A program made the translations under genes and the position numbers. From assembly GCA_963809895.1 (NCBI GenBank), contig CAWELD010000003.1, positions 3,200,001 to 3,264,000 on the forward strand: a DNA stretch of 64,000 nt. The letters run 5' to 3'. The DNA is from an uncultured Gemmatimonadales bacterium. GTDB lineage: Bacteria > Gemmatimonadota > Gemmatimonadetes > Longimicrobiales > Gaopeijiaceae. The notes beneath the pieces are model-generated. The model did not search any database, was not told the DNA's origin, and saw only the letters and a program-made list of their open reading frames with translations. How positions within the stretch are numbered: the first letter of the stretch is position 1; each line of letters starts with the position of its first letter. Of this stretch, positions 11,291 to 36,244 are shown one piece after another.

Positions 11291-12394
11291 ATGGACACCT
11301 CACAGAAGCGCGCCCCGCCCCGTCGTCCATGCCTGGTCCGCGTGGCCGACCGCGGCGACGTGCTGGAGATCGCGTTCGGCCGGGGATTCACCGAGTCCGA
11401 TGTCGCCACCGTGAAGGCGCTCCCCCAGCGCCGCTGGGACGCCGAGCGGAGCGTCTGGATCGTGCCCAAGGCCGAGGGCGTCGACGAGGCGCTCGAGCGA
11501 AGCTTCGGCGCCCGCATCCGACGCACCCGGGCCGAGCCGCCCGCGAACCCCGAGGGTCCCGAGACCCTCCTGGACCGCACCCGCACCGAGCTCGTCATCC
11601 GGGGCTACGCGAGGCGCACACAGAAGATCTACCTCGGCCACCTGCGCCGCTTCCTGGAGTGGTGCGACCACGACCTCGGCTCCGATCCTCCTCGCCGCAT
11701 GCGTGCCTACCTGCTCCACCTGGTGGAGGACCGGGGCGCCTCGCGGAGCTATCACAACCAGGCCGTCAGCGCCCTGAAGCTCCTGTGCGAAGCGGTGCTC
11801 GGCGAGCCCCGCCTGGCCGAGCGGGTCCCCCGCCCCAAGCCCGAGAAGCGCCTGCCACAGGTCTTGAGCCGCGCCCAGGTGCGTCGCCTCGTGAACCAGA
11901 TCCGCCATCCCAAGCACCGCGCCATCGTTCTCCTGCTCTATTCCGCGGGACTCCGGGTCGGCGAGGTCGTCCGGCTCAAGAAGGAGGACCTGGACACCGA
12001 CCGCGGCCTCCTGCGCGTGCGCCAGGGCAAGGGCAGCAAGGACCGCTACACCCTGCTCTCCACCCGTGCCCTCGAAGCCGTCCGCATCTATCAAGCCGCG
12101 TATCCTTCAGAGGAGCGCTGGCTCTTTCCCGGCGAGCGCAGGGGGCGCCACTACGGCAGCCGCTCCGTGCAGAGGATCGTCCGCGAGGCCGCCCGCAAAG
12201 CCGGCCTCGGCGAGCACGTCACGCCCCACGTGCTCCGTCACTCCTTCGCCACCCACCTACTCGAGGCCGGCACCGACCTCCGCTACATCCAGGAGCTCCT
12301 CGGCCACAAGAGCAGCCGCACCACCGAGATCTACACCCACGTCAGCTCCACCCGCCTGGCGGCCATCCGGAGTCCGCTGGACGAGGAGGGGTGA
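11291..12394 (+). CDS. tyrosine recombinase (integron-integrase-like, lacking the IntI insertion) with an extra N-terminal HARP/DUF5710-like domain
   Basis: SAM-like RGYARRTQKIYLGHLRRF; catalytic YSAGLRVGE, GKGSKDR, HVLRHSFATH, LLGH and TTEIYTH; N-terminal VKALPQRRWDAERSVWIVP. Confidence 0.9.
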   Translation: MDTSQKRAPPRRPCLVRVADRGDVLEIAFGRGFTESDVATVKALPQRRWDAERSVWIVPKAEGVDEALERSFGARIRRTRAEPPANPEGPETLLDRTRTELVIRGYARRTQKIYLGHLRRFLEWCDHDLGSDPPRRMRAYLLHLVEDRGASRSYHNQAVSALKLLCEAVLGEPRLAERVPRPKPEKRLPQVLSRAQVRRLVNQIRHPKHRAIVLLLYSAGLRVGEVVRLKKEDLDTDRGLLRVRQGKGSKDRYTLLSTRALEAVRIYQAAYPSEERWLFPGERRGRHYGSRSVQRIVREAARKAGLGEHVTPHVLRHSFATHLLEAGTDLRYIQELLGHKSSRTTEIYTHVSSTRLAAIRSPLDEEG

Positions 12395-12484
12395 GCGAAG
12401 GACTCACGGAGTGGCCGCGACCAGCGCATCTCACCCACGCCCGGGTTAGATTGCCACTGATCGCGCACTCGACGGAGGGGCGCC

Positions 12485-12691
12485 ATGGCGGAAGTGACAG
12501 TGTCGACCAGGTACCGGATCGTAATCCCCAAAGCGGTACGGGAGACGCTCGGGGTCGAGATCGGCCAGAAGCTCCAGGCCTTCGCGGGCCCACGTCAGAT
12601 CATCCTCGTCCCCGTGGAGCCCCTACCCGTCATGAGGGGATTCCTGAGCAGGCTCGAGAACGACTTCGACCGCGCACTCGATGAAGGGTGA
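12485..12691 (+). CDS. AbrB/MazE/SpoVT-family antitoxin-like protein (no adjacent toxin)
   Basis: VSTRYRIVIPKAVRETLGVEIGQKL; GGAGG RBS. Confidence 0.8.
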   Translation: MAEVTVSTRYRIVIPKAVRETLGVEIGQKLQAFAGPRQIILVPVEPLPVMRGFLSRLENDFDRALDEG

Positions 12692-12959
12692 CGGCAGCGC
12701 GGGCCCGCCCCTCAGACGGTGGCAAGTGGCCTGCGTCATCGAGGGCGTAGCACTGATGATCGGGCTCGTGATGCCCGTCACGCCCAGTAAGACCGGATCC
12801 GATTGGAGCATGGCGCAGCTTGTCTTCCCGGAGCCCTCGTACCTCCAGGAGGTGCTCGTCTACTTCGTGCTGACGAACCTTCTGATCGTCGCGTTCGTCG
12901 GAACCCTGTGGCTGTTCGTCCGGCTCGAGCAGCGGCGCCCGAAGGCCTCGGGGGATTAG
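12681..12959 (+). CDS. small two-TM hypothetical protein
   Basis: Two hydrophobic segments. Confidence 0.5.
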   Translation: MKGDGSAGPPLRRWQVACVIEGVALMIGLVMPVTPSKTGSDWSMAQLVFPEPSYLQEVLVYFVLTNLLIVAFVGTLWLFVRLEQRRPKASGD

Positions 12960-13143
12960 GGGCCGATCCTCGCCGCCCAACCCACCGAGGCCCAAGCATT
13001 GCGGCTAGGGTGTGCCCGGTGCAATATGAAGTCGGGGGATTCACGAGGCGCAGAGGCCAGGGCCCGAAGAGGACCTAAGGCCCGACCACACCTTCGGAAA
13101 TCTCCGGGCGATGGGCGAACTCGTGCCAGACACACCCAACGCC

Positions 13144-13158
13144 CATAAGGAGTTATGC
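13144..13158 (+). other. candidate primary (attI-like) recombination site
   Basis: CATAAGGAGTTATGC; GTTATGC starts the first cassette; shares AAGGAG(T/C)TA with the sites at 23825 and 27253. Confidence 0.5.
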
Positions 13159-13472
13159 AAAATGCGGTGGTGCGGCCTGGGTCGCTGGCGCCGGACGAAG
13201 CCTTCGGAAAAGGGCGAGCGATCGGGTCGAGTGACCGCCTCCCCAGCCCCTCTTCATGGGTTGGCACCCTTCCCTTTCCCGACCCATTCTAAGCCGGCCA
13301 TGGCTTCGATCCCCGAGCTCCGGCAGGGGCTGGGTTCGGCTACCATCGTCGCCCCGGGGTCCAACTCAGCCTTCGAGAGGCAACGGCTTCCTCCGGCCTA
13401 CGGCTCCTCGCCGGGCTGCGGTACGTGGGCCATCGGTGATCACTCCGCAGCACCTCACGCACTCTGCATAAC
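13152..13472 (+). ncRNA. ORF-less structured cassette, copy 1 (putative ncRNA or ssDNA element)
   Basis: Bounded by GTTATGC/GCATAAC; nested stems CCCAGCCCCT/AGGGGCTGGG, ATGGGTTGG/CCGACCCAT and GCTGCGG/CCGCAGC. Confidence 0.55.
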
Positions 13473-13632
13473 AACAAGGCTTCCGGCTCCGCGCCCGCCG
13501 TGCACGGCGCGGCCTCCGCGCAACCGGCCCACGACCAAGTGGAAGACCCTGGCGAAGCCGGCAGCAACTCAGCGTAACCTGCGAGTCGAACGATTGGACG
13601 GGGGCCGGTTCGGAAGCCCCGTCACGTTATGC
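13466..13632 (+). repeat. attC-like site, family A (167 bp)
   Basis: GCATAAC-aacaa-GGCTTCCG...CGGAAGCC-ccgtcac-GTTATGC. Confidence 0.85.
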
Positions 13633-13941
13633 AAAATGCGTGGTGCGGCCTGGGTCGCTGGCGCCGGACGAAGCCTTCGGAAAAGGGCGAGCAATCGGGT
13701 CAGATGACCGCCTCCCCAGCCCCTCTTCATGGGTGGATGCCCTTCCCTTTCCCGGCCCATTCTAAGCCGGCCATGGCTTCGATTCCCGAGCTCCGGCAAG
13801 GGGCTGAGATCGGCTACCGTCGTCGCCCTGGGGTCCAACTCAGCCCTCGGCGGCCCGGCTTCCTCCGGCCTACACTCCTCGCCAGGCTGCGGTACATGGG
13901 CCATCGATGTCACTCCGCAGCACCCACGCACTCTGCATAAC
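13626..13941 (+). ncRNA. ORF-less structured cassette, copy 2
   Basis: Tandem diverged copy of 13152-13472 with indels that break any shared reading frame. Confidence 0.55.
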
Positions 13942-14100
13942 AACAACGCTTCCGGCTCCGCGCCACGCCTGAACGGCGCGGCCTCCGCGCAACCGGCCCA
14001 CGAGCAGGTGGAAGACCCTGGCGGAGCCGGCAGCAATCAGCGTAACCTGCGAGTCGAACGATTGGACGGGGGCCGGTTCGGAAGCCCCGACACGTTATCG
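13935..14100 (+). repeat. attC-like site, family A
   Basis: GCATAAC...GCTTCCG...CGGAAGC...gacac-GTTATCG. Confidence 0.85.
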
Positions 14101-14173
14101 GGCAGCGCGGAATCGGCGTGTCTGGAAGTACGGTTGTACGATGCTCGGCAACTGAGACGTGCGTGGTGTTCTC

Positions 14174-14341
14174 ATGGCAAACAGCGCGAAATCCCTTCAG
14201 AGAGTCCTGGCGGCCTTGGTGGGGTTGGGCCTTGGTGGTGTGGGGTCTGGCGTGTTGGTCATGCTGTGGGGCATCGCAGGTTGGCCCCTCTTGATTCCAA
14301 TGCTCGTGGGCCTCGCAGCGGGCGCGATGTTCGGGGATTGA
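14174..14341 (+). CDS. small membrane protein cassette (possibly truncated by a nonsense codon)
   Basis: Two TM segments; the frame continues GIGLLARALAGL after the TGA; cassette ends GTTATCGGGC/GCCCGATAAC. Confidence 0.5.
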   Translation: MANSAKSLQRVLAALVGLGLGGVGSGVLVMLWGIAGWPLLIPMLVGLAAGAMFGD

Positions 14342-14423
14342 GGAATCGGCCTCTTGGCCCGTGCCCTCGCTGGGCTGTAGTCGACCGGAGTCGGTGGATT
14401 GGGGAATGGTGGGCGGCGCCGCC

Positions 14424-14513
14424 CGATAACAATGCGGGTGGCGCCTGCGCTCGCTACGCTCGCTCCGGGGAACACGGCACGCGATGCGCGCCGCGCCGGA
14501 CCCTTGGAACGTT
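14424..14513 (+). repeat. attC-like site, family B, with its right box split by an IS1111
   Basis: CGATAAC...GGGT...ACCC-ttggaac-GTT, then the IS; ATGTGC resumes at 16019. Confidence 0.75.
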
Positions 14514-16018
14514 GATATGGAAGGGCCTGTCAAGGTATGTAGCGCGAAGTGTGGGGAGCCCGGGGCGGCTTCGACGATGAATCCTGCTGATATTCGATGG
14601 TTGAGCCCGTCAGGGCCCAGAGCATCAGGAGACGGATTCGTCGGGAGCTGGCTGGAGTCTATTCGCGGGGATTGGGCGCTGGGCCGTACCCCGTAACGTT
14701 TTCGGGCGTTCTCCTATCGTGCCCCGAGACTCCCCAATGTTCGCTCGCTGGTTGAATCAGGCGGCGCGGCTCACCTCCTGAAGCTGAGAGACATCCACGT
14801 CGCGGAGGACGGCCCAGAGGAAGCCGACCATCTCGCGGGCGACGGCCGTGGCGGCCACCGGCCTGGGCTTCTTGGCGGCGAGTCGATGGAAGAGAGTGTA
14901 GAGGCGATGCTGACACTTCCAGGCGTGCTGAATGACGGCGGGATCCTGGCCGCGTTGACGGCGGCGGAGGGACGCGCCGACGGCCGGGCGCTTCCGATAG
15001 TGCCATGCAGCCTGGATCAGGATATGGCGGCACACGTGTGTTGCCGGCCTTGGTGATGGCGCCCAGGCGTCGCCGCTCTCCCGAGGAGTGCTCGCTGGGG
15101 ATGAGGCCGACGTAGGCCATGAGCTGGCGCGGACTCTCGAAGCGGCGAACGTCGCCGAGCTCGGTAGCGAGGACCATGGCGGCCTGGGTCTTGAAGCCGC
15201 GGAAGCAGCGGAGGCGGTCGACCAGGGGCTTGTAGCGCGGCGTGAGGGCGAGGTCCTCGATGCGACGGTCCAGCTCGTCGCGTCGCTGGAGCTTGTACTC
15301 GAGCAGCGCGAGGTACTCCGAGAGCACGATCTGGTCTTCGTCGGCGAAGGTGCCGGGGTCGAGCATGTGGCGGATCCAGTCGAGGTGGCGCACGGTCCAG
15401 TGGGTGCCCTCGCGATAGATGAAGCCTCGGCGGCGCATGAACTTGAGGATATAGTGGCGCGATTTGACGATCTCGCGCTGGAAGGTCTCGCGGCAGCGGA
15501 CCAAGTCGCGCACCCGCTCGTCGGCCTCGGTGGGCACGTGAATGAGGACGAGGCGGTCGTCACGGAAGTCACGAGCGATCTTGATGGCGTCGCGGCGGTC
15601 GGACTTGCGGTGCTCGCCCGGCCGCGCGCGGGATCAGCGAGGGCGCGGCCAGATCGCAGGGCGACGCCCCAGTCGACGAGGGAGCGCTGGAGCACGTAAC
15701 CCGCACCCGAGGCCTCGTAGCAGGCGCGCACGGACGCCCTCGGCTTGGAGCCGCTGGAAGTAGCGGCGGACTTTGCGGAGATCGTAGGGGAGGCGGTCGA
15801 CGCGCATGGGCTCCGGATCACGGTCCCGGAACACGGCCGCAGTGACGGAATCCTTGTGGACGTCGAGGCCGACCCAGAAGATTGGGGCACGATGGGATGA
15901 TGACATGGGGCTGGTCTCCTGTCGGTTGCGGCTCGACCGCCGCATGTGGCGCTGGCGTTGCCTCTCACGCGACGCTAATCCACGACATCCGCGGGAGGCC
16001 AGCCCTTCCATCGTGTCT
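14514..16018 (-). mobile_element. IS110-family, IS1111-type element
   Basis: Sub-terminal IRs ATGGAAGGGC (14517-14526) / GCCCTTCCAT (16002-16011), 3 and 7 nt from the ends; no target duplication; ~240-bp non-coding region downstream of the transposase. Confidence 0.85.
14757..15906 (-). pseudogene. IS110 transposase, frameshifted
   Basis: VGLDVHKDS, CYEASG, DRRDA and GLIPSEHSSG...GAITKAGN motifs spread over three frames. Confidence 0.85.
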
Positions 16019-16071
16019 ATGTGCAATCGCGGGGACGAGAGGTCGCGCGAAGCGGAGCGTTCGACCTGGCG

Positions 16072-16569
16072 ATGATGACAGGAGATGCCTGGGTGGTCGA
16101 GTTTGACCGTAGGAAGCCGTTCGGAATCACGGTGGCCATGGTGTTCCTCGGCCTCCTTGCCAGTCTCGGGTCGGTTGCCGGCCTCGCCAATCTCCTCACG
16201 TCACTCTTCGGCGAAGGGCCGTTCCTAATGAACGGCGTCATCGTGCCAAGGCACGAGTTTCTCCGTTTCGCTCTTCCATTCATTCTATTCTACCTCAGTC
16301 TGTGCACTCTGGCTGGGGCCGCCGCGTGGTCCATCCATGTTGAGCATCCACGTTCCAGGCCCTTGTTGTTGATCTATGCGGCTTCTCTCGTCTTCACGAG
16401 CCCGTGGTCCCTTGCCCTTGGAGTGCCAGCCGCGGACGTGGCCTCATCAACGCTGTCCGCAGCCTTGGTCACAGGATTGGTCTGGTTCTACTTGTATCGA
16501 AAGAAGGCGGTGGTTCAGTACTACGACGCGATCAGGATCGCCCAGATGGCGCGCCCGGAACGACACTAG
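16072..16569 (+). CDS. hypothetical membrane protein (cassette)
   Basis: RKPFGITV...; four TM segments; single ORF filling the cassette. Confidence 0.7.
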   Translation: MMTGDAWVVEFDRRKPFGITVAMVFLGLLASLGSVAGLANLLTSLFGEGPFLMNGVIVPRHEFLRFALPFILFYLSLCTLAGAAAWSIHVEHPRSRPLLLIYAASLVFTSPWSLALGVPAADVASSTLSAALVTGLVWFYLYRKKAVVQYYDAIRIAQMARPERH

Positions 16570-16601
16570 CGGTGGCGCCTCAACGCAATTGTGGCGACCG
16601 C

Positions 16602-16761
16602 ACATAACAACAGGGCGTTCCGGCTCCGGCCGCAGGTGCGGCCTCCGCTGCAACCGGCCCACGAACATGAGGAAGACCCTGGCGCAGCCGGCAGCAATCA
16701 GCGTAACCTGCGAGTCGAACGGTTGGAGCGGGGCCGGTTCGGAAGCCCCTTCACGTTAAGC
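16602..16761 (+). repeat. attC-like site, family A
   Basis: ACATAAC...CGGAAGCCccttcac-GTTAAGC. Confidence 0.85.
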
Positions 16762-17017
16762 GAAGTCGCGACAATCCCTGGTTGGCGCGCATGTTCACCG
16801 TGAGTGGAGGTATGCTATCCGGACTTGGCGATTCCTGGCCGTAGCGACCGCCTGGGTCACTCCCGCCCTTGGCGCTTGCACGGCCGACGAGGAACCGACC
16901 GAAGACACGGCTCCTGCGGCGCGTCTTGAGGAGACGCTGCGTGTCGGATCGGTAGAGGGAGATCTGTCCTTCGGTACGATCCTGAACGTTGCCCGGGGAC
17001 CGGGAGGCCGGACGTAT

Positions 17018-18001
17018 GTGGTCGAGCCGGTCGGGTCTCGAGTCTCGATCCTAGATTCGGACGGGACACGGGTCGGAACGGTCGGTGGCGCCGGCATGGG
17101 CCCAGGGGAGTTTGCTCGTCCAGGTCGGATGGGATGGGTCGGGGACACTCTCTGGATCTTGGACGGGGCGAACTACCGGTTCTCGCTCTTCTCCCAGGCC
17201 GGCGAGTTCATCGGCGAGGTCAATCCGCAGATCGCCGAGCGGCAAGACCCTTCCGACATACCTCCTCGACCCGTGGGTCTCTTGCCGGGCGGCGTCCTCT
17301 TCGCGAGGACTTCGGTGCCCTCCCATCTGGTGGCGCAGGGTGTCATCGACAGCCTCACGTACTACTCGCTCGATCGGGACGGCGCCATTCTCCGAGAGCT
17401 GCATCGCACGCGGGCTACGCCGCCGCTATGGATTCACAACCCGGACTCGCGGAATCCGATCTCGGGCCGCTTCAAGGCACAGCCTTTCGTCACAGGGGAA
17501 CTTGTCGTGCCCAGCCCCGATGGCGCGTTCGTGACCGCCACGGCGAGTGAGGGTCGGACGGTCGTGACGAAGATCAGCCTCGACCTCGATACGATGTGGA
17601 GTCGCACTCTTCCTGTGAGTCCACCCCCACTCTCGGAAGCCACGATCGACAGTCTCATTGAAGCCGAGTCTGAGAGCTTCGCGCGGTCTCCGGCGGCTGA
17701 GGGCGCCACAGCAGCTCGTATCGCGACGTGGGTACGAGATGCTCTGGTGACTCCGGAGGTCAGGCCCGGATTGGAGGAGATGGTCGTCGGTCACGACGCC
17801 AGCATCTGGATCGCTCATCCGGACACTGCCGGAGCTCGGCAGTGGGTGGTTCTCTCGAGCGACGGGAGGGTCCAAGCGAGAGCAGCCCTGTCGCGAGAGG
17901 TGACGGTCTTCGATGGGTGGGAGAACGGACTGATCGGCGTAGTCCACGACGCTCTCGATGTCCCTCGGATCGTGAGGTACGAGCTACGAGGCGGAGGCTA
18001 G
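17018..18001 (+). CDS. 6-bladed beta-propeller lipoprotein (frame open upstream to ~16808; start uncertain)
   Basis: GGAGMGPGEF, GDTLWILD and DALDVPRIVRY; upstream in-frame lipobox LGAC. Confidence 0.75.
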   Translation: MVEPVGSRVSILDSDGTRVGTVGGAGMGPGEFARPGRMGWVGDTLWILDGANYRFSLFSQAGEFIGEVNPQIAERQDPSDIPPRPVGLLPGGVLFARTSVPSHLVAQGVIDSLTYYSLDRDGAILRELHRTRATPPLWIHNPDSRNPISGRFKAQPFVTGELVVPSPDGAFVTATASEGRTVVTKISLDLDTMWSRTLPVSPPPLSEATIDSLIEAESESFARSPAAEGATAARIATWVRDALVTPEVRPGLEEMVVGHDASIWIAHPDTAGARQWVVLSSDGRVQARAALSREVTVFDGWENGLIGVVHDALDVPRIVRYELRGGG

Positions 18002-18094
18002 CGGGGTTCGACGGACCGACCGCTGCTTCCTCCTCCAGAGGTCGGGCGCGTTGGCGCCGAAGGCCGGCGCGATGTGCGTCTCGATTGCGACCTC

Positions 18095-18258
18095 GCTTAA
18101 CTGCGGGCTTCCGGCTCCGCGCCGCTGAACGCGGCGCTCCGTCCCAACTGGCCGCGGCCGTCAGCGGAAGGGTCTGGCGGTCAGGCTGCGGGCGAACGTA
18201 CTCTGGCCACCTGAAGCACTGCTGACGGGGCCAGTTCGGAAGCCCTGACACGTTATGC
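18095..18258 (+). repeat. attC-like site, family A variant
   Basis: GCTTAAC-tgc-GGGCTTCCG...CGGAAGCCC-tgacac-GTTATGC. Confidence 0.85.
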
Positions 18259-18566
18259 CCAATGTGGAGGCGCGTCGTGATCGCGGGCACCGGAGGAAGC
18301 CTTCGATAGGTCGCGAGCGAGAAGGTCAGTTGACCGCCTCCCCAGCCCCTCTTCAGGGGTTGGCACCCTTCCCTTTCCCGACCCCTTGAGCCAGCCATGG
18401 CTTCGATCCTCGAGCTCCGGCTTGGGGCTGGGTTCGGCTACCATCGTCGCCCCGGCGCGCAACCCAGCCTTCGAGAAGCAAGGGCTTCCTCCGGTTTCGG
18501 CTCGTCGCCGGGCTGCGGTACGCGGGCGATCCCGACCACTTCCCAGCGCCTCCCCACAGGCATAAC
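18252..18566 (+). ncRNA. ORF-less structured cassette, copy 3 (more diverged)
   Basis: Same core as 13152-13472 with compensatory stem changes. Confidence 0.55.
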
Positions 18567-18729
18567 AACAAGGCTTCCGGCTCCGCGCCACGCCGTTGAA
18601 CGGCGCGGCGCTCCGTCCCAACCGTCCCACGACCAAGCGGAGGACCCTGGCGGAACCGGCTGCTCTCAGCGTACCCTGCGAGTCGAACGGTTGGACGGGG
18701 GCCGGTTCGGAAGCCCCTTCACGTTAGGC
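18560..18729 (+). repeat. attC-like site, family A (170 bp)
   Basis: GCATAAC-aacaa-GGCTTCCG...CGGAAGCC-ccttcac-GTTAGGC. Confidence 0.85.
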
Positions 18730-18772
18730 GTAATGTTCCGTGCCAAGTTATCCATTGTGACGGAGACAACTG

Positions 18773-26232: not shown

Positions 26233-26240
26233 GCAGCGTC

Positions 26241-27221: not shown

Positions 27222-27252
27222 TGGCGGGCTGAGCCTTGGGGCGGGCCAACAG

Positions 27253-27272: not shown

Positions 27273-27334
27273 AAGCTGGCTTCGCAACCCGCACTCACGC
27301 GTCGCGACGGGAACTGACTGGGAGAGTCTGGCGT

Positions 27335-27358
27335 GAGTATACTAGTATCGGTATACTC
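27335..27358. promoter_or_regulatory. palindromic operator/promoter of the RelE-HTH TA cassette
   Basis: GAGTATAC-N8-GTATACTC containing TATACT, immediately upstream of the toxin; nearly conserved in the second copy. Confidence 0.5.
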
Positions 27359-27387
27359 GTTCATGAGCAGACGCGACGCCCAAGCCG

Positions 27388-27732
27388 GTGGTCTGGCTCG
27401 GATCGGCCCGATCGGACCTACGCTCGTTCCCGGAGGAGGTCCGTACAGACGTGGGCTTCGCCCTCTGGGTGGCACAACGGGGTGGACGGCCCGCCCAGGC
27501 GAAGACGCTCAAGGGAATCGTCTCCGGTGCGGGCGTGCTCGAGCTGGTCGAGCGCCGCGACGGGGACACCTATCGAGTGGTGTACACAGTACGGTTCGCG
27601 GATGCGGTGTACGTACTCCACGCATTCCAGAAGAAGTCGAAGCGCGGAATCAAGACGCCGAAGCATGAGATCGACCTGATTCGGTCGCGGCTCAAGGCCG
27701 CGGAAGAGCACTACGGTGGGAGCGGACGATGA
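27388..27732 (+). CDS. RelE/HigB (Gp49-like) toxin, copy 1 (5' +1 indel relative to copy 2)
   Basis: WLGSARSDLRSFP...YRVVY...YVLHAFQKKS. Confidence 0.8.
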   Translation: MVWLGSARSDLRSFPEEVRTDVGFALWVAQRGGRPAQAKTLKGIVSGAGVLELVERRDGDTYRVVYTVRFADAVYVLHAFQKKSKRGIKTPKHEIDLIRSRLKAAEEHYGGSGR

Positions 27733-28058
27733 CCAAGGACCAGATTGAGGAGAGTTCGGGGAACGTATTCGCGGACCTAGGTCTCGCCGAGGCGGAAGAA
27801 CTCCATACAAAGGCTCAGCTTGCGCATCGGATCGGCGAGATCGTTCGCGGTCGCCACCTCACGCAGGCCGAGGCTGCGGACGTGCTTGGTGCGACGCAGC
27901 CGATCGTCTCGAGGCTGATGCGTGGCCAGCTGCACGGATTCTCGCTAGAGCGTCTCATGCGGTTCCTCAACGCTCTGGACCGCGACGTTGAGATCGTGGT
28001 CCGGCGCCGGCCACGGAGTCGAGATCACGGCGAGACACGGGTGAAGGTCACCGGCTGA
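27729..28058 (+). CDS. XRE/HigA-type HTH antitoxin, copy 1
   Basis: SSGNVFADLG, LTQAEAA and FSLERL. Confidence 0.85.
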   Translation: MTKDQIEESSGNVFADLGLAEAEELHTKAQLAHRIGEIVRGRHLTQAEAADVLGATQPIVSRLMRGQLHGFSLERLMRFLNALDRDVEIVVRRRPRSRDHGETRVKVTG

Positions 28059-28150
28059 CCCGCCGGGTAACGACAGTCACCCGCTTGGAGAGACGCCCGA
28101 GTTGGGTTCGTTTAAGCCGCTCTGGTTCTCCGACCAACGAAGCCATCAAC

Positions 28151-28314
28151 AGATAACTCCAGGCTCCCGGCTCCGCACCGCTGAACGCGGCGCTCCGTCC
28201 CAACTGGCCTCGGCCGTCTCGGAAGGGGGTTTCGCATCGGCTGCGAAGGGACGTATGCTGGCCGCATGAAGCCGTGCTAACGGGGGCCAGTTCGGAAGCC
28301 CCTTCACGTTAGAC
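28151..28314 (+). repeat. attC-like site, family A variant
   Basis: AGATAAC...GGCTCCCG...CGGAAGCC-ccttcac-GTTAGAC; similar to the site at 18095. Confidence 0.85.
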
Positions 28315-28362
28315 GGAATGGCATCGTCAACGAGTGGACCATCTGGCTTGGAAGCGGAGTCT

Positions 28363-28857
28363 ATGGAGGTAAGTAGAGCGAACTCGGCCGACCAACAGGT
28401 CGCAGAGGCCCTTCGCTGGATTAGCGAGATCTTCGATCGCATCGGCGCACAGTACCAAGTCGTGGGCGGACTCGCCGCGCGTGCGTATGGGGCGACTCGT
28501 CCCCTGATCGACCTCGACTTCTATGTCCGAGCCGAAGATCTGCCCCGAGTATTGGCTTGTGTGGGCGACTCATGTGTTTGGGGACCAGAGCATTTCAAGG
28601 ACGAGAACTGGGACCTGACGTTCGCCAAGCTCGAGAGGCGGGGAGTTCAGATTGAGTTGGCCGAAGCGGAAGGAGCTCGATACTACAGTCCGGGCACCGG
28701 TGAGTGGCTGGACCAGGACATCGCATTCCAGGACTCCGAGCGACACACGGTGCTTGGGGTGGAGATACAAGTGATGCGCAGGGGCCAGCTCGTCGCGTAC
28801 AAGCGAGCCTTGGATCGCCCGGTAGACAGGCTGGACCTCAGTGAGATAGCGGAATGA
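28363..28857 (+). CDS. nucleotidyltransferase-superfamily protein
   Basis: VVGGLAARAYG..R...DLDF and YKRALDRPVDRLD. Confidence 0.75.
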   Translation: MEVSRANSADQQVAEALRWISEIFDRIGAQYQVVGGLAARAYGATRPLIDLDFYVRAEDLPRVLACVGDSCVWGPEHFKDENWDLTFAKLERRGVQIELAEAEGARYYSPGTGEWLDQDIAFQDSERHTVLGVEIQVMRRGQLVAYKRALDRPVDRLDLSEIAE

Positions 28858-28931
28858 GCGTGGGGCGATGCCGAGGAAGTAGCCCGACTGAGAACCGGAT
28901 CCAACAGGCGGGTCGCCGACCATGCCACTGC

Positions 28932-29023
28932 GTATATCAAACGGGTACCGCCTTCGCTCACTACGTTCGCTCCAGAGAACACGGCTCGCGTTGCAGCCGC
29001 GTCGGTACCCCGACACGTTATCA
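28932..29023 (+). repeat. attC-like site, family B (left box degenerate)
   Basis: GGGTACCG...CGGTACCC-cgacac-GTTATCA; core similar to the site at 14424. Confidence 0.75.
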
Positions 29024-29113
29024 GACACACGAACAAGAAGGCGGAGTGGAGCCGGGGCGCGTTGGCGGGGTAGAAGGCCCATTGCGCTGCTCAGATTGCC
29101 ATGGAGGTCTCAA

Positions 29114-29344
29114 ATGCGAACCGGTGCCGAAGAGCTCGAATTGGCGGTTCTCTCTCTCCCGGCGGGAGATCGTGCTCGGTTGGCGAGACGCCTGATCGAG
29201 AGCCTTGATCAGGACCCCGAGATCGAAGCGGCTTGGGAGAAGGAAATCGCTCGACGGGTAGCCAAGATCGAGTCCGGCGACGCGACACTCGTTGCTGCGA
29301 AGGACGTGTTCTCGGAGGCGCGTCGCCTGATCGATGCGTCGTGA
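29114..29344 (+). CDS. addiction-module antitoxin
   Basis: LSLPAGDRARLARRLIESLD...AWEKEIARR. Confidence 0.85.
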   Translation: MRTGAEELELAVLSLPAGDRARLARRLIESLDQDPEIEAAWEKEIARRVAKIESGDATLVAAKDVFSEARRLIDAS

Positions 29345-29631
29345 CCCTCCGGTTCGAAGCGGAAGCAGCTGAGGAGTTCTACCGCGCGATCCAGTACTAC
29401 GAGGGCCAGTCTCCAGGCCTCGGTGCGGAACTCCTCGCCGATCTCGAGCGCTTGGAAGGCCTGCTCATCGCGAATCCTGAGATGGGCAGTCCTGGTCCAA
29501 TACACACCCGCCGTGTGCTTCTCTCACGGTTTCCATTTGTTCTGGTCTACCGGCTCTTTGACGGTGAGCCGGTCGTCCTCGCCTTCGCTCATCAACGGAA
29601 GAAGCCAGGGTATTGGCTAGATCGGGTCTGA
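29341..29631 (+). CDS. ParE/RelE-family toxin
   Basis: AIQYYEGQSPGLG, RFPFVLVY and AHQRKKPGYW. Confidence 0.85.
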   Translation: MTLRFEAEAAEEFYRAIQYYEGQSPGLGAELLADLERLEGLLIANPEMGSPGPIHTRRVLLSRFPFVLVYRLFDGEPVVLAFAHQRKKPGYWLDRV

Positions 29632-29640
29632 GCGCTGTAC

Positions 29641-29665
29641 CGGTCGGTACCCTGGAACGTTAAGC
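29641..29665 (+). repeat. truncated attC-like site (right half of family B)
   Basis: GTCGGTACCC-tggaac-GTTAAGC. Confidence 0.65.
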
Positions 29666-29721
29666 GCCATGACGTGGACGGAGTGCAGGAGGCAGCATTC
29701 GTCTCGAAGGAGGAGGTGTGT

Positions 29722-29949
29722 GTGACCCGGCTCCAAGGTCAGTACTTAGCGTTCATCGCTGTCTATACCAAGATCAATGGCAAGGCGCCTGCGGAAGCTG
29801 ATTTGCAGAGGTACTTCAAGGTGACCCCACCGAGCGTCCACGATATGATTCTGCGGCTTGAAGCATCGGGATACGTACGCCGCACGCCGGGACGGGCGCG
29901 ATCGCTGGAGGTTCTCATACCAGAGGAGGAGGTGCCACAACTTGAATAG
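29722..29949 (+). CDS. LexA/MarR-like winged-HTH protein
   Basis: QGQYLAFI...PAEADLQRYFKVTPPSVHDMILRLE..G. Confidence 0.75.
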   Translation: MTRLQGQYLAFIAVYTKINGKAPAEADLQRYFKVTPPSVHDMILRLEASGYVRRTPGRARSLEVLIPEEEVPQLE

Positions 29950-30321
29950 TACCTGTCGGAGGTCGGCACGCATCCGATGGTGTGAAGGATGTGGTCTCGT
30001 GAGGTCCGACAAGAGCTTCAATCGGATAGGGCTCATTGGATAGGATCCGCATTCCCTTCGGGTCGAGAATCGACGTCCCGCTGGCTCAGAAGCATCGTGA
30101 GCTGATCCGTGAGCATACGTTCATCGATCCTGAGACTGAACGTGCCTTGAACCTGGCAGTCTCTGATGGGGCGAACCTCCTGGCCCGATTGAGAATGGAG
30201 GACCTCGACGATCTCATTAGGGGGATCCGTAGATAGGAAGGCGAGTTGGCTACAGTATGGATGGTGGGTGGAGGAGGTCGGCCCGTTCTCGTTACGGCTT
30301 ATCCATGGAAGGGGGAGACGC

Positions 30322-30546
30322 ATGAACGAACTAGACACGGTTGTGCTACGACGCGCTCTGCCGGACTTCGGTCTGGTGGAAGGTGATGTCGGAGCCATCG
30401 TCCATGTCCACGCCCCCGATGCATTCGAGGTTGAATTCGCGACCGGTGAGGGAACGACGCTGGCTGTCGTGACGCTCCGGGCAGCCGACCTGCGGCCGAT
30501 CGACGCTCACGAGTTGCTTCACGTCCGCACGGTCGCGCACGGCTGA
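30322..30546 (+). CDS. DUF4926 domain protein
   Basis: ELDTVVL...GLVEGDVGAIVHV....FEVEF. Confidence 0.8.
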   Translation: MNELDTVVLRRALPDFGLVEGDVGAIVHVHAPDAFEVEFATGEGTTLAVVTLRAADLRPIDAHELLHVRTVAHG

Positions 30547-30589
30547 CCCGGCGGATGTCGACGGTGGGACCTGCACGGACAGCGGCAGC

Positions 30590-30684
30590 AGCGAACTGAA
30601 AAGTTGCCGCCGCCGTTCGCTCACGCTCACTTCGGTGAAGCACGGCCCTGTTCGGGCCGCGCCGGCAACTCCGACACGTTAGAA
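30590..30684 (+). repeat. attC-like site, family C
   Basis: AGTTGCCG...CGGCAACT-ccgacac-GTTAGAA; core similar to the site at 22587. Confidence 0.8.
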
Positions 30685-30687
30685 GAA

Positions 30688-31173
30688 ATGGGCCGTGTCA
30701 CGGGCGAAGTCGAAGGAGTAGCGGTGTTGAACAGTGCATTTCGCCTTGCGACGGTTTCTCTTCTGATCGTATGCTTCGGAGCCAAAGGCACTCAACTCTC
30801 CTCGTTACCCGCCTGTTTCGACGTGACGTCCTCGCCCTGGAACCTGCGGGCCGATGAGGTGCCTCGTGCGGCCCGACTGACGCTGACTTCCGAGCCATTC
30901 TACTTCGAGCTCTACGGCCCCGATCCTCTCGGATTCCGCGCGACACTCTTCTTCGAAACCGGCGACTCTGCCTCCTTGGCCTGGCATCTCTCCGAGGGGA
31001 ACGACACTCTGTCCGCGTCGTTCGGGGTCCACGAGCGCTATGCCCTGATCGTGACTCCCGCCGGCGATCGGACTCTCGACGGCGAACTGCGGTGGGAAGA
31101 CGACGGCGGGGGAACCGCAGTGTCATCTGTGCTGCTCCATCCTGTGGGTTGCGCCGAGGTGGCTAGACGATGA
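30688..31173 (+). CDS. hypothetical exported protein (cassette)
   Basis: Single ORF between GTTAGAAG and CTTCTAAC. Confidence 0.55.
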   Translation: MGRVTGEVEGVAVLNSAFRLATVSLLIVCFGAKGTQLSSLPACFDVTSSPWNLRADEVPRAARLTLTSEPFYFELYGPDPLGFRATLFFETGDSASLAWHLSEGNDTLSASFGVHERYALIVTPAGDRTLDGELRWEDDGGGTAVSSVLLHPVGCAEVARR

Positions 31174-31317
31174 CGGTCAACGCCCGGCGGTCGAGGGAGA
31201 CCTGACTACCCAAGTTGAGGAGAGTCAGCGGTCAGCTTCGTCCGACCGCGGCCCACTCCTTCTAACAGGAAGGCTTCCGGCTCCGCGCCGCTGGCGCGGC
31301 CTCCGTCCCAACCGGCC

Positions 31318-32781
31318 TCCATGAGAAGGCCCGCCGTGTCAAGCTCGGTCGCATCATAGTTCGAGTCGTGCCCTCGCCGTGCCTCCATTCGCAGTCCTGG
31401 TCGGCCGCTCGGGCCTGCTGCATGCTGGTGTCCGTCCCTGCCGGGCGCTGCAATCCCTTTGACGGTCTTGAGAGACCTGGGCCGGTAGCGCAGTCACCCG
31501 GACAGGGCGTCGAGCGCGTCTCGTGTCGTGAAGCGACCTCGTGGTCGTCGGAACCTCCGAGTGTGATCGGTGCGATTCGTGTCGGTTCAGGGGATCAGGC
31601 GGCGACCTCCGCGCCGGCCTCCGGGACCTCCGTGTCGGCGTTGTGCAGCGGCTCGTAGACCTCACCCGTGACCCAGAGTCGGTGAAGGAGCACGGCCAGT
31701 TTGCGGGCAACCGCGATGATGGCCCTCCTCTTGGCCGCCGGCCCGCCTCGTTCCGCGAGCCGGAGTCCCCAGCGTCTCAGATCGGTGTCCGGTCCGAAGG
31801 GTCCGAGGACGTAGTGGGCCGACTGCACGAGGAGGGTGCGGAGCATCCGGTCGCCGGCCTTCGTGGTCGAGAGCTCCGGACTCGACTCGCCTGACTGGTG
31901 CCGTCGAGGCACAAGCCCCAGGTAGGGGCCCACAGCCCGGCTCGTGGAGAACCGATCCGGGCTCTCGAGCGTCAGCAGGTAGGTGAGCGCCGTGAGCGTT
32001 CCCACGCCTTGCACCTGCGTGAGCACCCTCGTCTCCGGATAGTTCGTGCGCGCCAGCTCCTCGATCCAGCGATCCATCTCTCTGATCTGCGACGTGAGCT
32101 CGGCGATCGTGTCGAGGACCGGGAGCAACGCCGCGTACAGCGGTTCGGGGATATCCTCCTCGACCTTCCAGTGGAAGCTCTCCGTCGAGCAGGGCGGCAA
32201 CCGACCACCCATCGCCTTGACGGTCGAGCGCATGTGATTGACCAGCGCCGTCCGGGCCTCGACCAGGGCGCTCCGGGACCGGATCACCGCCAGGTCCGCC
32301 TGCGCGTCCTCGCTCCGGTGGATGACCGGTGCCAGTAGCTTCGGATCGAGCCGTCCGACCCGAGCCAGGTACTCGGCATCGGCGCGGTCGCTCTTCTGAT
32401 CGTTCTCGTAGATGAACCGGAGCTTGCGAGGATTGGCGACGATCACCTCGTGGCCCAGGCCGTGGAGCAGCCGACTGATCCACGGCGAGTGGGGCCCCAC
32501 CTCGAGAACCACCCGCGTCGGCTCCTCGCGCTCGAACCGACGGGTCAGCGCCGGCGCCGAGGTCGAGAGCCGCGATTCCTCGACCACCTCGCCCGACGCG
32601 TCCACCACGCACAGGTGACTCACTCGGTCGCTCACGTCCAATCCGATTGTCCGCTCCGGTGCCTTCGCCGTATCTTGCATTCGGCCAACCTCCGTGCCTT
32701 GGGCTTCGAGCCCGCTTCTAGTTTGGGGCGCCCGAAAGGGTAACCCCGACTCCGCCGGGGGTTGGCCTTCTCATTTCATCC
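31318..32781 (-). mobile_element. IS110-family, IS1111-type element
   Basis: IRs ATGAGAAGGCC (31321-31331) / GGCCTTCTCAT (32764-32774), 3 and 7 nt from the ends; no target duplication. Confidence 0.88.
31595..32680 (-). CDS. IS110 transposase, intact
   Basis: IGLDVSD, VLEVG, KSDRADA, GLVPRRHQSG and AVARKLA. Confidence 0.92.
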   Translation of the reverse strand: MQDTAKAPERTIGLDVSDRVSHLCVVDASGEVVEESRLSTSAPALTRRFEREEPTRVVLEVGPHSPWISRLLHGLGHEVIVANPRKLRFIYENDQKSDRADAEYLARVGRLDPKLLAPVIHRSEDAQADLAVIRSRSALVEARTALVNHMRSTVKAMGGRLPPCSTESFHWKVEEDIPEPLYAALLPVLDTIAELTSQIREMDRWIEELARTNYPETRVLTQVQGVGTLTALTYLLTLESPDRFSTSRAVGPYLGLVPRRHQSGESSPELSTTKAGDRMLRTLLVQSAHYVLGPFGPDTDLRRWGLRLAERGGPAAKRRAIIAVARKLAVLLHRLWVTGEVYEPLHNADTEVPEAGAEVAA

Positions 32782-33052
32782 CACGAGCAGCTGGAAGACC
32801 CTGGCGGAGCGGGCGGCACTCAGCGTCACCTGCGAGTGAGCGGTTGGGACGGGGGCCGGTTCGGAGGCCCTAGAACGTTATCAGCCATTGCCCGGACGAG
32901 AGGATCGCGGGAGCGTGAGTGAGGCATGCTGCGCGCCGCGCGCCTCTGGCCGGGTGCGGCCCGGAGGTCGAGGATCTTGCGAGCATGAGTGCCCGGAGCA
33001 AGTGTTGGCGAACGAGGAGGGCCCTCCCGAGCGAGTGAGGGGTAATCAAAGC

Positions 33053-33280
33053 ATGAACTACCGAGACCGAATCACCATCGAACCAGGCAAGCGGAGCGGC
33101 AAGCCGTGTATCCGTGGCATGCGGATCACGGTTTCGGACGTGCTCGACTACCTGGCGTCCGGGATGACGGAGGACGAGATCCTGGCGGAGTTCCCAGATC
33201 TCGAGAAGGACGACATCAAGGCGGCTCTTGCGTTCGCAGCGGACCGGGAGCGTCGGTTGATGTCGGTGCCTCCAGCATGA
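33053..33280 (+). CDS. DUF433 antitoxin-like protein
   Basis: RITIEPGKRSGKPCIRGMRITV. Confidence 0.88.
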   Translation: MNYRDRITIEPGKRSGKPCIRGMRITVSDVLDYLASGMTEDEILAEFPDLEKDDIKAALAFAADRERRLMSVPPA

Positions 33281-33284
33281 TCCT

Positions 33285-33617
33285 GTGAAGCTCCTTTTCG
33301 ATCAGAATCTCGCTCCCCGCTTGGCTCGCGATCTCGCCGACATCTTCCCGGGCTCGGTGCACGTTCGTGGCCTGGGAATGGCACAGGCCTCGGATCGACA
33401 GATCTGGGATCACGCGAGAGAGGAGGGCTTCGTGATCGTGTCGAAGGACAACGACTTCCAGCAAATGAGCTTCGTATTCGGCGCTCCGCCGAAGGTCATC
33501 TGGATCCGCCGCGGGAACTGCAGTGTGGAAGAATCCGCAGGGGTCCTGCGGGAGAACGCAGCTCGGATAGGCGAGTTCGAGATCGATCAAGTGGCTACCT
33601 ACCTTGTCCTGTCCTGA
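33285..33617 (+). CDS. DUF5615 PIN-like toxin
   Basis: MKLLFDQNL, IVSKDNDF and PPKVIWIRRGN. Confidence 0.88.
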   Translation: MKLLFDQNLAPRLARDLADIFPGSVHVRGLGMAQASDRQIWDHAREEGFVIVSKDNDFQQMSFVFGAPPKVIWIRRGNCSVEESAGVLRENAARIGEFEIDQVATYLVLS

Positions 33618-33631
33618 CAGACGGCAACGGC

Positions 33632-33733
33632 TGATAACAGGCTGGGTTGCCACTCGCGTCGGCCTGCGGCCGGTGCGGCCCTTCGGGACACCCGCCCCGC
33701 GGGCGGGCGTCGGGAACCGCCGGAACGTTATCT
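33632..33733 (+). repeat. attC-like site, distinct family (102 bp)
   Basis: TGATAAC...GGTT...AACC-gccggaac-GTTATCT. Confidence 0.75.
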
Positions 33734-33824
33734 GAAGCTGGCTTCGCAACCCCCACTCACGCGTCGCGACGGGAACTGACTCGGAGGCTCTGGCGTAAGT
33801 ATACCAGTATCGGTATACTCGTTC

Positions 33825-34193
33825 ATGAGTGACGCGACGCCCAAGCCGGTGTTCTGGCTCGGATCGGCCCGATCGGACCTACGCTCGTTCCCGGAGGAGG
33901 TCCGCACGGACGTGGGCTTCGCCCTCTGGGTGGCACAACGGGGTGGACGGCCCGCCCAAGCGAAGACGCTCAAGGGAATCGTCTCCGGTGCGGGCGTGCT
34001 CGAGCTGGTCGAGCGCCACGACGGGGACACCTATCGGGTGGTGTACACAGTACGGTTCGCGGATGCCGTGTACGTACTCCACGCATTCCAGAAGAAGTCG
34101 AAGCGCGGAATCAAGACGCCGAAGCATGAGATCGACCTGATTCGGTCGCGGCTCAAGGCCGCGGAAGAGCACTACGGTGGGAGCGGACGATGA
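33825..34193 (+). CDS. RelE/HigB (Gp49-like) toxin, copy 2
   Basis: Near-identical to the copy at 27388, with an intact start. Confidence 0.85.
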   Translation: MSDATPKPVFWLGSARSDLRSFPEEVRTDVGFALWVAQRGGRPAQAKTLKGIVSGAGVLELVERHDGDTYRVVYTVRFADAVYVLHAFQKKSKRGIKTPKHEIDLIRSRLKAAEEHYGGSGR

Positions 34194-34519
34194 CCAAGGA
34201 CCAGATCGAGGAGAGTTCGGGGAACGTATTCGCGGACCTAGGTCTCGCCGAGGCGGAAGAACTCCATACAAAGGCTCAGCTTGCGCATCGGATCGGCGAG
34301 ATCGTTCGCGGTCGCCACCTCACGCAGGCCGAGGCTGCGGACGTGCTTGGTGCGACGCAGCCGATCGTCTCGAGGCTGATGCGTGGCCAGCTGCACGGAT
34401 TCTCGCTAGAGCGTCTCATGCGGTTCCTCAACGCTCTGGACCGCGACGTTGAGATCGTGGTCCGGCGCCGGCCACGGAGTCGAGATCACGGCGAGACACG
34501 GGTGAAGGTCACCGGCTGA
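34190..34519 (+). CDS. XRE/HigA-type antitoxin, copy 2
   Basis: Protein identical to 27729-28058. Confidence 0.85.
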   Translation: MTKDQIEESSGNVFADLGLAEAEELHTKAQLAHRIGEIVRGRHLTQAEAADVLGATQPIVSRLMRGQLHGFSLERLMRFLNALDRDVEIVVRRRPRSRDHGETRVKVTG

Positions 34520-34611
34520 CCCGTCGAGTAACGACAGTCACCCGCTTGGAGAGACGCCCGAGTTGGGTTCGTTTCAGCCGCTCTGGTTCTCCGACCAGCG
34601 AAGCCATCAAC

Positions 34612-34680
34612 AGATAACTCCAGGCTCCCGGCTCCGCACCGCTGAACGCGGCGCTCCGTCCCAACTGGCCTCGGCCGTCT
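34612..34680 (+). repeat. truncated attC-like site (left half only)
   Basis: Matches the 28151 site up to CGGCCGTCT, then joins the VapBC cassette leader. Confidence 0.8.
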
Positions 34681-34717
34681 CTCCGGTGAGCCTCATGTTG
34701 TCCGGGAGGGCTGAGCC

Positions 34718-34948
34718 ATGAACGACGAGTCTACAAAGGATGAGGTGGTCGAGGAGTTGAACCGATTGGCCGAAGCCGATCGGCGTCGGGTCCTGGACTA
34801 CGCTCGTTCACTCGGCCGCCGCGTCTCGAAGGGCGTGGCCGGCGACTCACTTCTGTCGTTGGCTGGGTCGTTACCAGAGGCGGAGGCATCGGCCATGGAG
34901 GCGGCCATTGAGGATGGGTGTGAGCGAGTGAACCTCGGTGCCTGCTAG
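34718..34948 (+). CDS. putative VapB-like antitoxin, copy 2
   Basis: Near-identical to 26483-26713. Confidence 0.7.
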   Translation: MNDESTKDEVVEELNRLAEADRRRVLDYARSLGRRVSKGVAGDSLLSLAGSLPEAEASAMEAAIEDGCERVNLGAC

Positions 34949-35324
34949 GGCACTTCTCGATACGAGTGCTGTCGTCGGGCTCCTGCGCGGCGATACGTCT
35001 GCAGTAAAGAAGGTCTGATCTCTGGACGAGGCATTCACGAGCATCGTGGTAATCGGCGACTCCTTTACGGAGCTCGCCTCTCGACGGGTGCAGAAACGAA
35101 CCTGGCGCTGGTTGCCTCGTTTGCGTCGTCGATCACCGTCCTCGCCTGCGACCGCGTGACGGCGGAAGCGTACGCACGTCTGAAGCATGGCCTGCGAGCC
35201 AAGGGGCGTCCGATCCCGGATAACGACCTATGGATCGCGGCCACGGCGGCGCGAGCGTGGTGACCCTCATCTCACGCGACGCGCACTTCGTGGTATCGAG
35301 GAACTCGGCCACGAGTCCGTGTAG
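34938..35324 (+). pseudogene. VapC/PIN toxin pseudogene
   Basis: GGA>TGA change relative to copy 1 plus indels; retains KGRPIPDNDLWIAATA and SRDAHF. Confidence 0.8.
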
Positions 35325-35471
35325 GCCTCGAGCTTCATAAACGGGACGTTACGCGAAAACCGACACCGACCGGAGAGACGTGGCGTTCAGGAGTCGAACG
35401 CTGCAGCGTAGGGTATGGGGTGAAGGTCGGAACTGGGTGGGCTCGCGCCAACTGGTTGATTTGGAGGACGG

Positions 35472-35930
35472 ATGTCGGAGCGAATCGTCTCGGACCCTGA
35501 GATTATGCTTGGTAAGCCCGTGGTCCGTGGCACTCGGATCACGGTGAGAGCATCGTCGAGCGACTCGGAGCCGGCGAATCGGTTCAGGCGATCGTCGATG
35601 CCCATCTACGCCTCACGCGACAAGACGTCCTCGCTGCGATCGCCTTTGCTGCTGAGGCACCAAGTCGGTGGGTGCATACCGGATTTCCACCGGCGCCGCG
35701 TGAAGCTCCTCTGCGACGAGGGAGTCGAACGCCATATCGTCGACGCTCTGCGCTCGTCCGCTCACGAGGTCACCTACGTTGCCGAGATCGCTCCAGCATC
35801 CCAGCGGAGGTCCTCCGGCGGGCCGCCGAGCGGGAGGCCATCCTGGTCACCTCTGACAAGGACTTCGGTGAACTCGTCTACCGGCAGGGACGAGCGCACG
35901 CAGGTATTGTCCTGCGGGACTGGGATGGAG
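35472..35930 (+). pseudogene. DUF433 plus DUF5615 TA pair, frameshifted
   Basis: RIVSDPEIMLGKPVVRGTRITV, KLLCDEGV and LVTSDKDFGELVY lie in different frames. Confidence 0.75.
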
Positions 35931-36175
35931 TCCGAGCGCTCTTCTACCCGAGCGCCCTTCTTCATAGCGAACTGACCTTGCCGGACAGGAGCCACCAGTC
36001 CGGGACTTGGACGGCTCTCCGGACTCTGATCCCGTGGGGCGCGGCATCAATGCCGTACATCTTCTGCGCCGGGACGGGGCGTGGCGCATCACCGGCCTCA
36101 TCTTCCAGATGGAGAGAGGCACGGCCGGGATTCCAGATCGCTACCTCTGACCTGCGGGTACCTGGACACGGGCCG

Positions 36176-36244
36176 CCGTAACGGATAGGCGAGGCGAGGG
36201 GGAGGAACTCGTTGCGAACTCCGGTTCGCGCGCACACGTTGGCC
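36176..36244 (+). repeat. degenerate attC-like site
   Basis: CCGTAAC...cacac-GTTGGCC; left box nearly complements GTTACGC at 35348. Confidence 0.45.

Follow-up and report, generated by a model that had tools for sequence, protein, structure and literature searches.

The I2 insertion of the integron integrase IntI is regarded, in the accessible part of one account, as necessary for cassette capture and as the innovation that founded integrons (PMC7790495), and integrons are, in the accessible part of another, extremely rare in Bacillota and Bacteroidota (PMC9024848). Smyshlyaev et al. (2021) delimited an integron-like subgroup in which the insertion is incompletely conserved, yet called it essential to integron function, and the available portion of their text describes no arrays for the insertion-free proteins (PMC8138268). 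In the available portion of Cury (2016), four I2-less recombinases lying between IntI and Xer, near a few attC sites, were dismissed as not IntI (PMC4889954); members of the family described here may be among the proteins in the supplementary figures of both papers. We analysed a stretch of 64,000 nucleotides (the window) from an uncultured Gemmatimonadales bacterium (assembly GCA_963809895.1, contig CAWELD010000003.1, positions 3,200,001 to 3,264,000), in which a tyrosine recombinase without I2, P0001, is followed by an array of cassette-like units. The coupling of this enzyme to an array with hairpin sites very probably represents an integron-like capture platform run by an I2-less, HARP-bearing recombinase. 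By the two features tested, I2 and the extrahelical base of the sites, the array is not an IntI integron, yet it appears to function like one. The DNA sequence itself establishes where crossover occurs, that the units are co-oriented and in part duplicated, that an attI-like site is present, and that the site grammar goes with the enzyme family.

The recombinase and its cassette sites

P0001 has core-binding and catalytic domains, with catalytic residues that vary little or not at all across 119 aligned sequences; a tyrosine of the core-binding domain, Y114, is likewise found in 119 of 119. Its score on the IntI model TIGR02249 is 210.6, under the cut-off of 265 that a control, the IntI encoded on contig C10 of the same genome, exceeds with 388. 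On NF040815 it scores 227.2 (cut-off 220), and it stays far below the XerC and XerD cut-offs. Aligned with VchIntIA (2a3v), the protein matches in two pieces that skip the I2 of about 40 residues near patch III, and a gap also appears against the C10 IntI. The catalytic lysine lies 66-69 amino acids (aa) from box II in 26 of 26 family members (68 in P0001), versus 108-109 aa in the nine IntI proteins with a correct pattern match, the pattern having misfired in two and found no match in four of the 15 searched. The original prediction had taken the protein to lack the IntI insertion and to belong to a different integrase clade, and both claims hold: the 15 IntI rows of our tree form one side of a branch with support 100/99, and P0001 lies outside it. 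Because the tree is unrooted and has just two Xer outgroups, ancestral lack and later loss of I2 are not told apart. Sub-groups of the family mostly track host phylum, which suggests long residence in their hosts; those close homologs that carry a name belong to Longimicrobiales and further Gemmatimonadota, which makes a host from this phylum probable.

The alignment-based model of P0001 (predicted local distance difference test, pLDDT, 92.3; the single-sequence model, at 39.6, was unusable) has 4a8e as its best structural match, the Foldseek matches listed for the whole model are all recombinases, and the model carries an extra N-terminal alpha/beta domain. For the N-terminal profile of 52 family members, the top match in the PDB is the HARP domain of SMARCAL1 (4o66, E 0.0028), Pfam HARP is matched in 6 of the 52, and the N-terminal domain of T4 UvsW resembles that of P0001 (Z 5.6, root-mean-square deviation 2.5, 57 aligned). 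The N-terminal fragment of P0001 alone gave no HARP match, and an Atlas search with the N-terminal part returned only unnamed clusters, all below 0.9. HARP domains bind forks and single/double-strand junctions. That the HARP-like domain plays its proposed role in place of I2 is a suggestion that we hold at about even probability.

Downstream of the gene, 21 crossover points were recognized (the starts of the 20 units and of the tail listed below), two of which, 35348 and 36238, are weak. With units linked by sites of 40-260 nt, the longest run of GTT...AAC units is eight, versus at most four in 30 shuffles. The array of roughly 20 tandem, co-oriented units first proposed is thus real and more than chance would give. 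The cassettes have a G|TT core and end in its complementary inverse. This arrangement, also part of the original prediction, is right in general, but the unit at 27265 opens with GCT, and just ahead of those at 13152, 23836 and 27265 stands AAGGA in place of a hairpin ending in AC. The cassette sites fold in the manner of attC, with an R box, an unpaired spacer, a second stem and a terminal part that varies. Among 14 curated window sites (a duplicate row, 16611, was excluded), 13 have 6-10 of 11 stem positions paired and none prefers an extrahelical base at position 9 after AAC (two ties). Such a bulge is present in control sites from class 1, Gemmatirosa and C10, and is preferred by 16 of 19 C10 sites, one of them on a junk score, a 20th site having no left arm. 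Automated calls gave 107 unbulged, 5 bulged and 2 tied sites among 114 family sites from 22 of 47 loci, and 25 bulged out of 25 in three IntI arrays.

A second distinction lies beyond the core. Pairing between cassette start and cassette end extends to about +15 save at +11, where A·C occurs in 85 of 114 units and T stands opposite in one; in the window itself the A·C is found in 9 of 17 curated units, with one more at +10 and the others decayed or variant. Of 80 loci fetched, 42 had a flank of 1.5 kb or more, and in these we picked units without regard to +11. A·C was present in 93 of 147 units downstream of homologs, covering 32 of 42 GTDB loci and several phyla, but upstream in just 5 of 126; three shuffles gave 1-4 of 41-59, and three IntI arrays 1 of 22. 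The mark has a polarity, running in the same orientation as the recombinase gene; A·C on the top strand is T·G on the bottom strand, a wobble that would favour the latter. In the spacer, 111 of 112 family sites also have 2-4 extra R'-arm bases. It is the +11 mispair, not this spacer asymmetry, that is the diagnostic mark of family sites, and together with the missing extrahelical base it sustains the early claim of a different site grammar.

The start codon offers a minor sequel. ATG occurs at +11 in 9 of 20 cassette starts, versus 22 of 655 in the background, and its A is the conserved +11 base. A design in which ATG and AAGGAG form a ribosome site was considered and rejected, only 3 of the 9 opening the cassette's gene; we treat the ATG as a by-product of +11 conservation, with possible co-option.

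Attachment site, homologs and a second integrase

Behind homologs of P0001, the first crossover lies about 40-260 nt past the recombinase gene. In 45 curated first sites, A at -8 (40 of 45) and T at -7 (34 of 45) are accompanied by an adjacent palindrome in 22, versus 5.7% of shuffles. The window's candidate, at 13152, has the palindrome (p 0.01) and shares its upstream motif with a relative (L088). At 23836 and 27265 its 6-bp core, AAGGAG, is found again, fused without a hairpin to the inverse core of a cassette, and at 23836 the left arm retains the +11 mispair with its own cassette start. Because this core recurs there, the hybrids tie the array to the window's own attI-like site and not to C10. 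Such junctions suggest an occasional left-side cut of the 6-bp attI core, as in an ancestral two-strand chemistry.

The hybrids bear on a different account of the same enzyme and array, in which conventional double-strand, Xer/Cre-like recombination acts on sites with 6-bp cores and the hairpin is merely accessory. The catalytic domain is indeed Xer-like, 4a8e being its best match, and the cassette-10 hybrid, on circularisation, would have a 6-bp spacer matching the attI core exactly, flanked by long inverted arms. However, the AAGGAG core is absent from 18 of 21 junctions, the bases before GTT differ between partners, and over 114 units it is the pairing that covaries, not the sequence. We consider the double-strand account improbable. 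A folded single strand is suggested instead because the core halves of intact sites are 80-160 nt apart and are paired only upon folding.

The same genome holds a natural control. The C10 IntI is followed by its own co-oriented array (26 profile matches across 603-641 kb), and intact sites of the two types are unmixed within the genome: on right-arm matrices, 0 of 15 window sites exceed -0.2 with the C10 matrix and 0 of 18 C10 sites exceed 8.5 with the window matrix, and at a threshold of 14 neither matches the other array. The C10 sites (C10:600921-641000; L001, L002) have an unusually long R'-side spacer, with an offset of 4 versus 1 in class 1 and Gemmatirosa, and their bulge base on the top strand is G, C or T. 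A lone IntI-type attC lies far from this array, at C3:653419-653517. A Gemmatirosa plasmid record lacking annotation (L135, 12885-24885) encodes an IntI accompanied by 19 or more attC sites that are homogeneous and co-oriented; in G003 no array could be discerned within 26-33 kb of its IntI, so that it does not serve as a second side-by-side control.

A true IntI in the genome raises the question of whether the window array is an integrase-less cluster served in trans from C10, with P0001 as a bystander. Besides the enzyme itself, one IntI-type relic site and one related gene in the decayed tail speak for it. Yet the C10 IntI has an array of other sites, no intact site crosses over, and the window sites have no extrahelical base, which IntI needs. 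Moreover, sites near-identical in type stand behind a homolog, with the +11 mark, in G001, G020, G055, G063 and G065, where no IntI above the cut-off was found (G020, G055, G063 and G065 are 95-97% complete in 1-20 contigs, G020 being a single contig at 97%); in G001, a complete Desulfitobacterium chromosome, 32 of 39 units have A·C at +11. Service in trans is therefore very hard to credit. The original prediction had named as refuting a canonical intI elsewhere in the genome together with homologs lacking arrays; the first exists, but with its own array and another grammar, and the homologs are strongly array-associated, as the survey of their neighbourhoods that it called for now shows, including in genomes with no IntI found.

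The recombinase is patchy, occurring in 25 of 61 related genomes and in 17 of 43 near-complete ones. The permease upstream of it in the window was not found in the relatives' loci examined, many with just 1.5 kb of flank, and synteny is thus not demonstrated. In G011 (L093/L111) the homolog is followed directly by the same Gp49/HTH toxin-antitoxin module as occurs in the window array, without a recognisable attI, and two genomes (G004, with locus L039, and G033) hold many near-identical, shorter I2-less recombinases of 281-305 aa, probably a transposon-linked subfamily.

Anatomy of the array

The features of the locus, with ORF standing for open reading frame, are as follows.

11291..12394, +: tyrosine recombinase P0001, 367 aa; catalytic R222, K247, H313, R316, H339, Y348; no I2 insertion
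11330..11533, +: N-terminal HARP-like domain, residues 14-81, by profile and fold similarity
12485..12691, +: AbrB/MazE-type ORF in the roughly 700-bp gap between recombinase and attI-like site
13090..13154, +: attI-like site with crossover G at 13152 and core CAT-AAGGAG|TT; upstream motif near -55; inverted repeat 13111-13117/13140-13146
13152..13625, +: cassette 1, apparently ORF-less; site 13469-13629
13626..14093, +: cassette 2, duplicating cassette 1 at 92%; site 13938-14097
14094..14510, +: cassette 3, short-site type; site 14427-14514
14511..14697, +: unit 4, decayed, no matching end
14698..16754, +: cassette 5, split by IS110 at the crossover; body from 16018, site 16605-16758
~14700-16017, -: IS110 within cassette 5, frameshifted
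16755..18251, +: cassette 6, 327-aa ORF (weak NHL-repeat match); site 18098-18255
18252..18722, +: cassette 7, related to cassette 1 (85%); site 18563-18726
18723..20560, +: cassette 8, Ser/Thr kinase-TPR protein; site 20413-20564
20561..22675, +: cassette 9, DUF5131 and TcmP pair (PADLOC PDC-M30/M41-like); site 22590-22679
22676..23835, +: cassette 10, 359-aa ORF; ends in a hybrid junction, own inverse core plus attI-like AAGGAG, no hairpin
23836..26392, +: cassette 11, OLD-type ATPase/TOPRIM nuclease and 191-aa ORF; site 26244-26396
26393..27264, +: unit 12, 5' portion with antitoxin/PIN, fused near 26910 with another cassette's end; second hybrid junction
27265..28307, +: cassette 13, Gp49 (RelE-like)/HTH toxin-antitoxin; site 28154-28311
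28308..29016, +: cassette 14, 179-aa ORF from +11; site 28936-29020
29017..29658, +: unit 15, ParE-type toxin-antitoxin; truncated site
29659..30677, +: unit 16, wHTH and DUF4926 ORFs; site 30593-30681
30678..32876, +: cassette 17; site in two parts, 31263-31322 and 32779-32880, separated by IS110
31595-32680, -: IS110 transposase in cassette 17
32877..33726, +: cassette 18, DUF433/DUF5615 toxin-antitoxin; site 33635-33730
33727..35347, +: unit 19, cassette 13 in a second copy, joined through a deletion near 34680 to a copy of the unit-12 antitoxin/PIN genes
35348..36237, +: unit 20, decayed DUF433/DUF5615 genes; weak boundaries
36238..62746, +: decayed tail; window-type relic sites at 42508, 50779 and 62686, IntI-type relic at 37122-37224
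43736: 78% relative of the cassette-14 gene, in the decayed tail

Over the array, GC mostly drops from about 70% to 57-65%, and a genome-wide scan for the fold-back signature found, over the two big contigs, a single large cluster, the window array. Whole units recur amid new neighbours, as first proposed: 27267-28220 and 33729-34681 (954 bp, 97.9% identity), the RelE-like Gp49/HTH toxin-antitoxin cassettes that start at 27265 and 33727, differ in what adjoins them. Elsewhere 26446-26910 matches 34681-35144 at 97%, and the apparently ORF-less cassette of about 320 bp exists in three copies (13152-14093, 18252-18722), 13152-13630 being 92% identical to 13626-14098 and 85% to 18252-18735; the first cassettes of two relatives (L086 and L087) look similar to it. 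Among the cargo are several toxin-antitoxin pairs, of which the Gp49/HTH module has a 73% relative within the array of G020, besides a kinase-TPR protein, DUF5131 paired with TcmP, and an OLD-type nuclease. The extent originally given, to 36244, fits the run of crossover points, the last of them at 36238, but profile searches trace site relics on to 62746, through a decayed tail of about 26 kb.

This decay may reflect a history in which the window enzyme made the array and the array is now largely inactive and decaying. Two IS110 elements at or in sites, deletion-fused units, the 26-kb tail and the insert-like 700-bp gap before attI agree with such a course, which we regard as unlikely though a serious contender: nothing disrupts the recombinase gene, cassettes 1 to 3 end cleanly, and duplicate units are 97-98% identical. 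The mechanism proposed below would be unaffected by it.

One IS110 (14698-16018) lies right behind the GT of a crossover, and the start of the interrupted cassette picks up at 16018; the second (31263-32880), in opposite orientation, cuts one hairpin site into two. IS1111 elements target attC, and the second IS110 recalls such elements. Near-identical pieces of the gap at 12395-13090, with its AbrB/MazE-type ORF, occur in contigs of three sequencing runs. A lone window-type site (L114) lies 1.3 Mb from the array in the same genome, at C3:1892759-1892914 on the minus strand; by eye, the genes upstream of it resemble a reverse transcriptase and a membrane protein. Within the window, Rfam gave no match and ARAGORN no tRNA. 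No match passed in a sigma-70 scan for a cassette promoter (Pc), a weak candidate with 17-bp spacing near 13000-13028 being seen by eye only. An energy-only ranking of AAC...GTT hairpins gave noisy results on such GC-rich DNA and was dropped.

Proposed mechanism and comparison with known systems

On the reading we favour, a chromosomal, integron-like platform run by P0001, the recombinase would insert circular cassettes at G|TT in the attI-like site that follows its gene and excise them between hairpin sites, the cassette site being recognised as a folded single (bottom) strand. Strand choice and the block of the second cut would then not depend on an extrahelical base and I2. The lopsided spacer, with its 2-4 extra R'-arm bases, may move the second scissile bond out of register, and the +11 mispair, which is A·C on the top strand and T·G on the other, could substitute for extrahelical bases and I2 together with the HARP-like domain, which would probably bind the single/double-strand junction.

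Several observations weigh against this reading. The HARP scores are each modest, and the family's own branch has a support of 69/81, a weak monophyly. Spacer asymmetry is not unique, C10 IntI sites also having an offset of 4. The +11 A·C is absent in 10 of 42 GTDB loci, as well as in G008, G027 and the short G011 flank, where no unit has it, and 13 of 25 IntI units (19 of the 25 being from Gemmatirosa) have A·C at +12, pairing not resuming beyond. Folding energies are weak evidence: they go just modestly beyond those of shuffles, with z ≤ -2 in 5 of 13 sites and the bottom strand more stable in 8 of 13, and do not settle strand choice alone. The AT of the window's attI-like site is one base nearer GTT than in the family consensus. 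The recombinase gene does lie upstream in the same orientation, but not immediately so as originally stated, since its end, at 12394, is separated from the first crossover by 757 bp that include the AbrB-type ORF. About 310 kb of homolog arrays yielded no hybrid junction, and the sequencing-run contigs, which are short and shallow, no circle junction or circular cassette. Finally, the C10-type relic at 37122-37224 and a tail gene (42018-42325) 73% identical to a C10-array gene point to possible old traffic between the arrays or an earlier array.

More broadly, the family may constitute a second ancient integron lineage, either the sister of IntI integrons or their predecessor, that arrived at the recombination of hairpin DNA on its own, with HARP domain and wobble replacing I2 helix and extrahelical bases, that is orthogonal to IntI within one cell, and that explains cassette capture in Bacillota and Bacteroidota. 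We regard this wider proposal as finely balanced. If true, a working I2-less system would make the origin of integrons directly testable, may explain their apparent lack in some phyla, and would give access to many arrays whose cassettes abound in toxin-antitoxin and defence genes. Having both systems, this genome provides matched enzymes and sites for cross-recognition, and possibly two orthogonal structure-specific recombination tools.

Like sedentary chromosomal integrons, including those with co-oriented intI (C10, Gemmatirosa L135), the window system has a G|TT crossover, start/end complementarity, fold-back sites, a single insertion site beside the recombinase gene, toxin-antitoxin and defence cargo, and ORF-less cassettes. 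Unlike them, it has no I2 and no position-9 extrahelical base, adds a HARP-like domain, folds back to about +15 with a fixed +11 mispair, places a palindrome beside attI, and occurs in Bacillota and Bacteroidota. With archaeal XerA and with XerC/XerD it shares an insertion-free catalytic domain and the structural match 4a8e, its NF040815 score lying just over the cut-off, but the window enzyme is patchy among related genomes and array-linked; the genome has separate XerC-like and XerD-like genes, whose flanks have no array signature.

The junctions at 23836 and 27265, where a cassette end is joined to an attI core, resemble the class 1 cassettes blaGES-1 and aadA10, whose attC is replaced by part of attI1 in the accessible description (PMC4670013), although here the copied core is 6 bp and such junctions are 2 of 21. 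Left-side reactions, as far as the available text of another study goes, would leave attI downstream of the cassette and are normally suppressed via the interaction of I2 with attC (PMC4792948). Our literature search, which covered few subscription papers, returned no description of I2-less cassette arrays; what is new here is the same-genome IntI control and the hybrid junctions.

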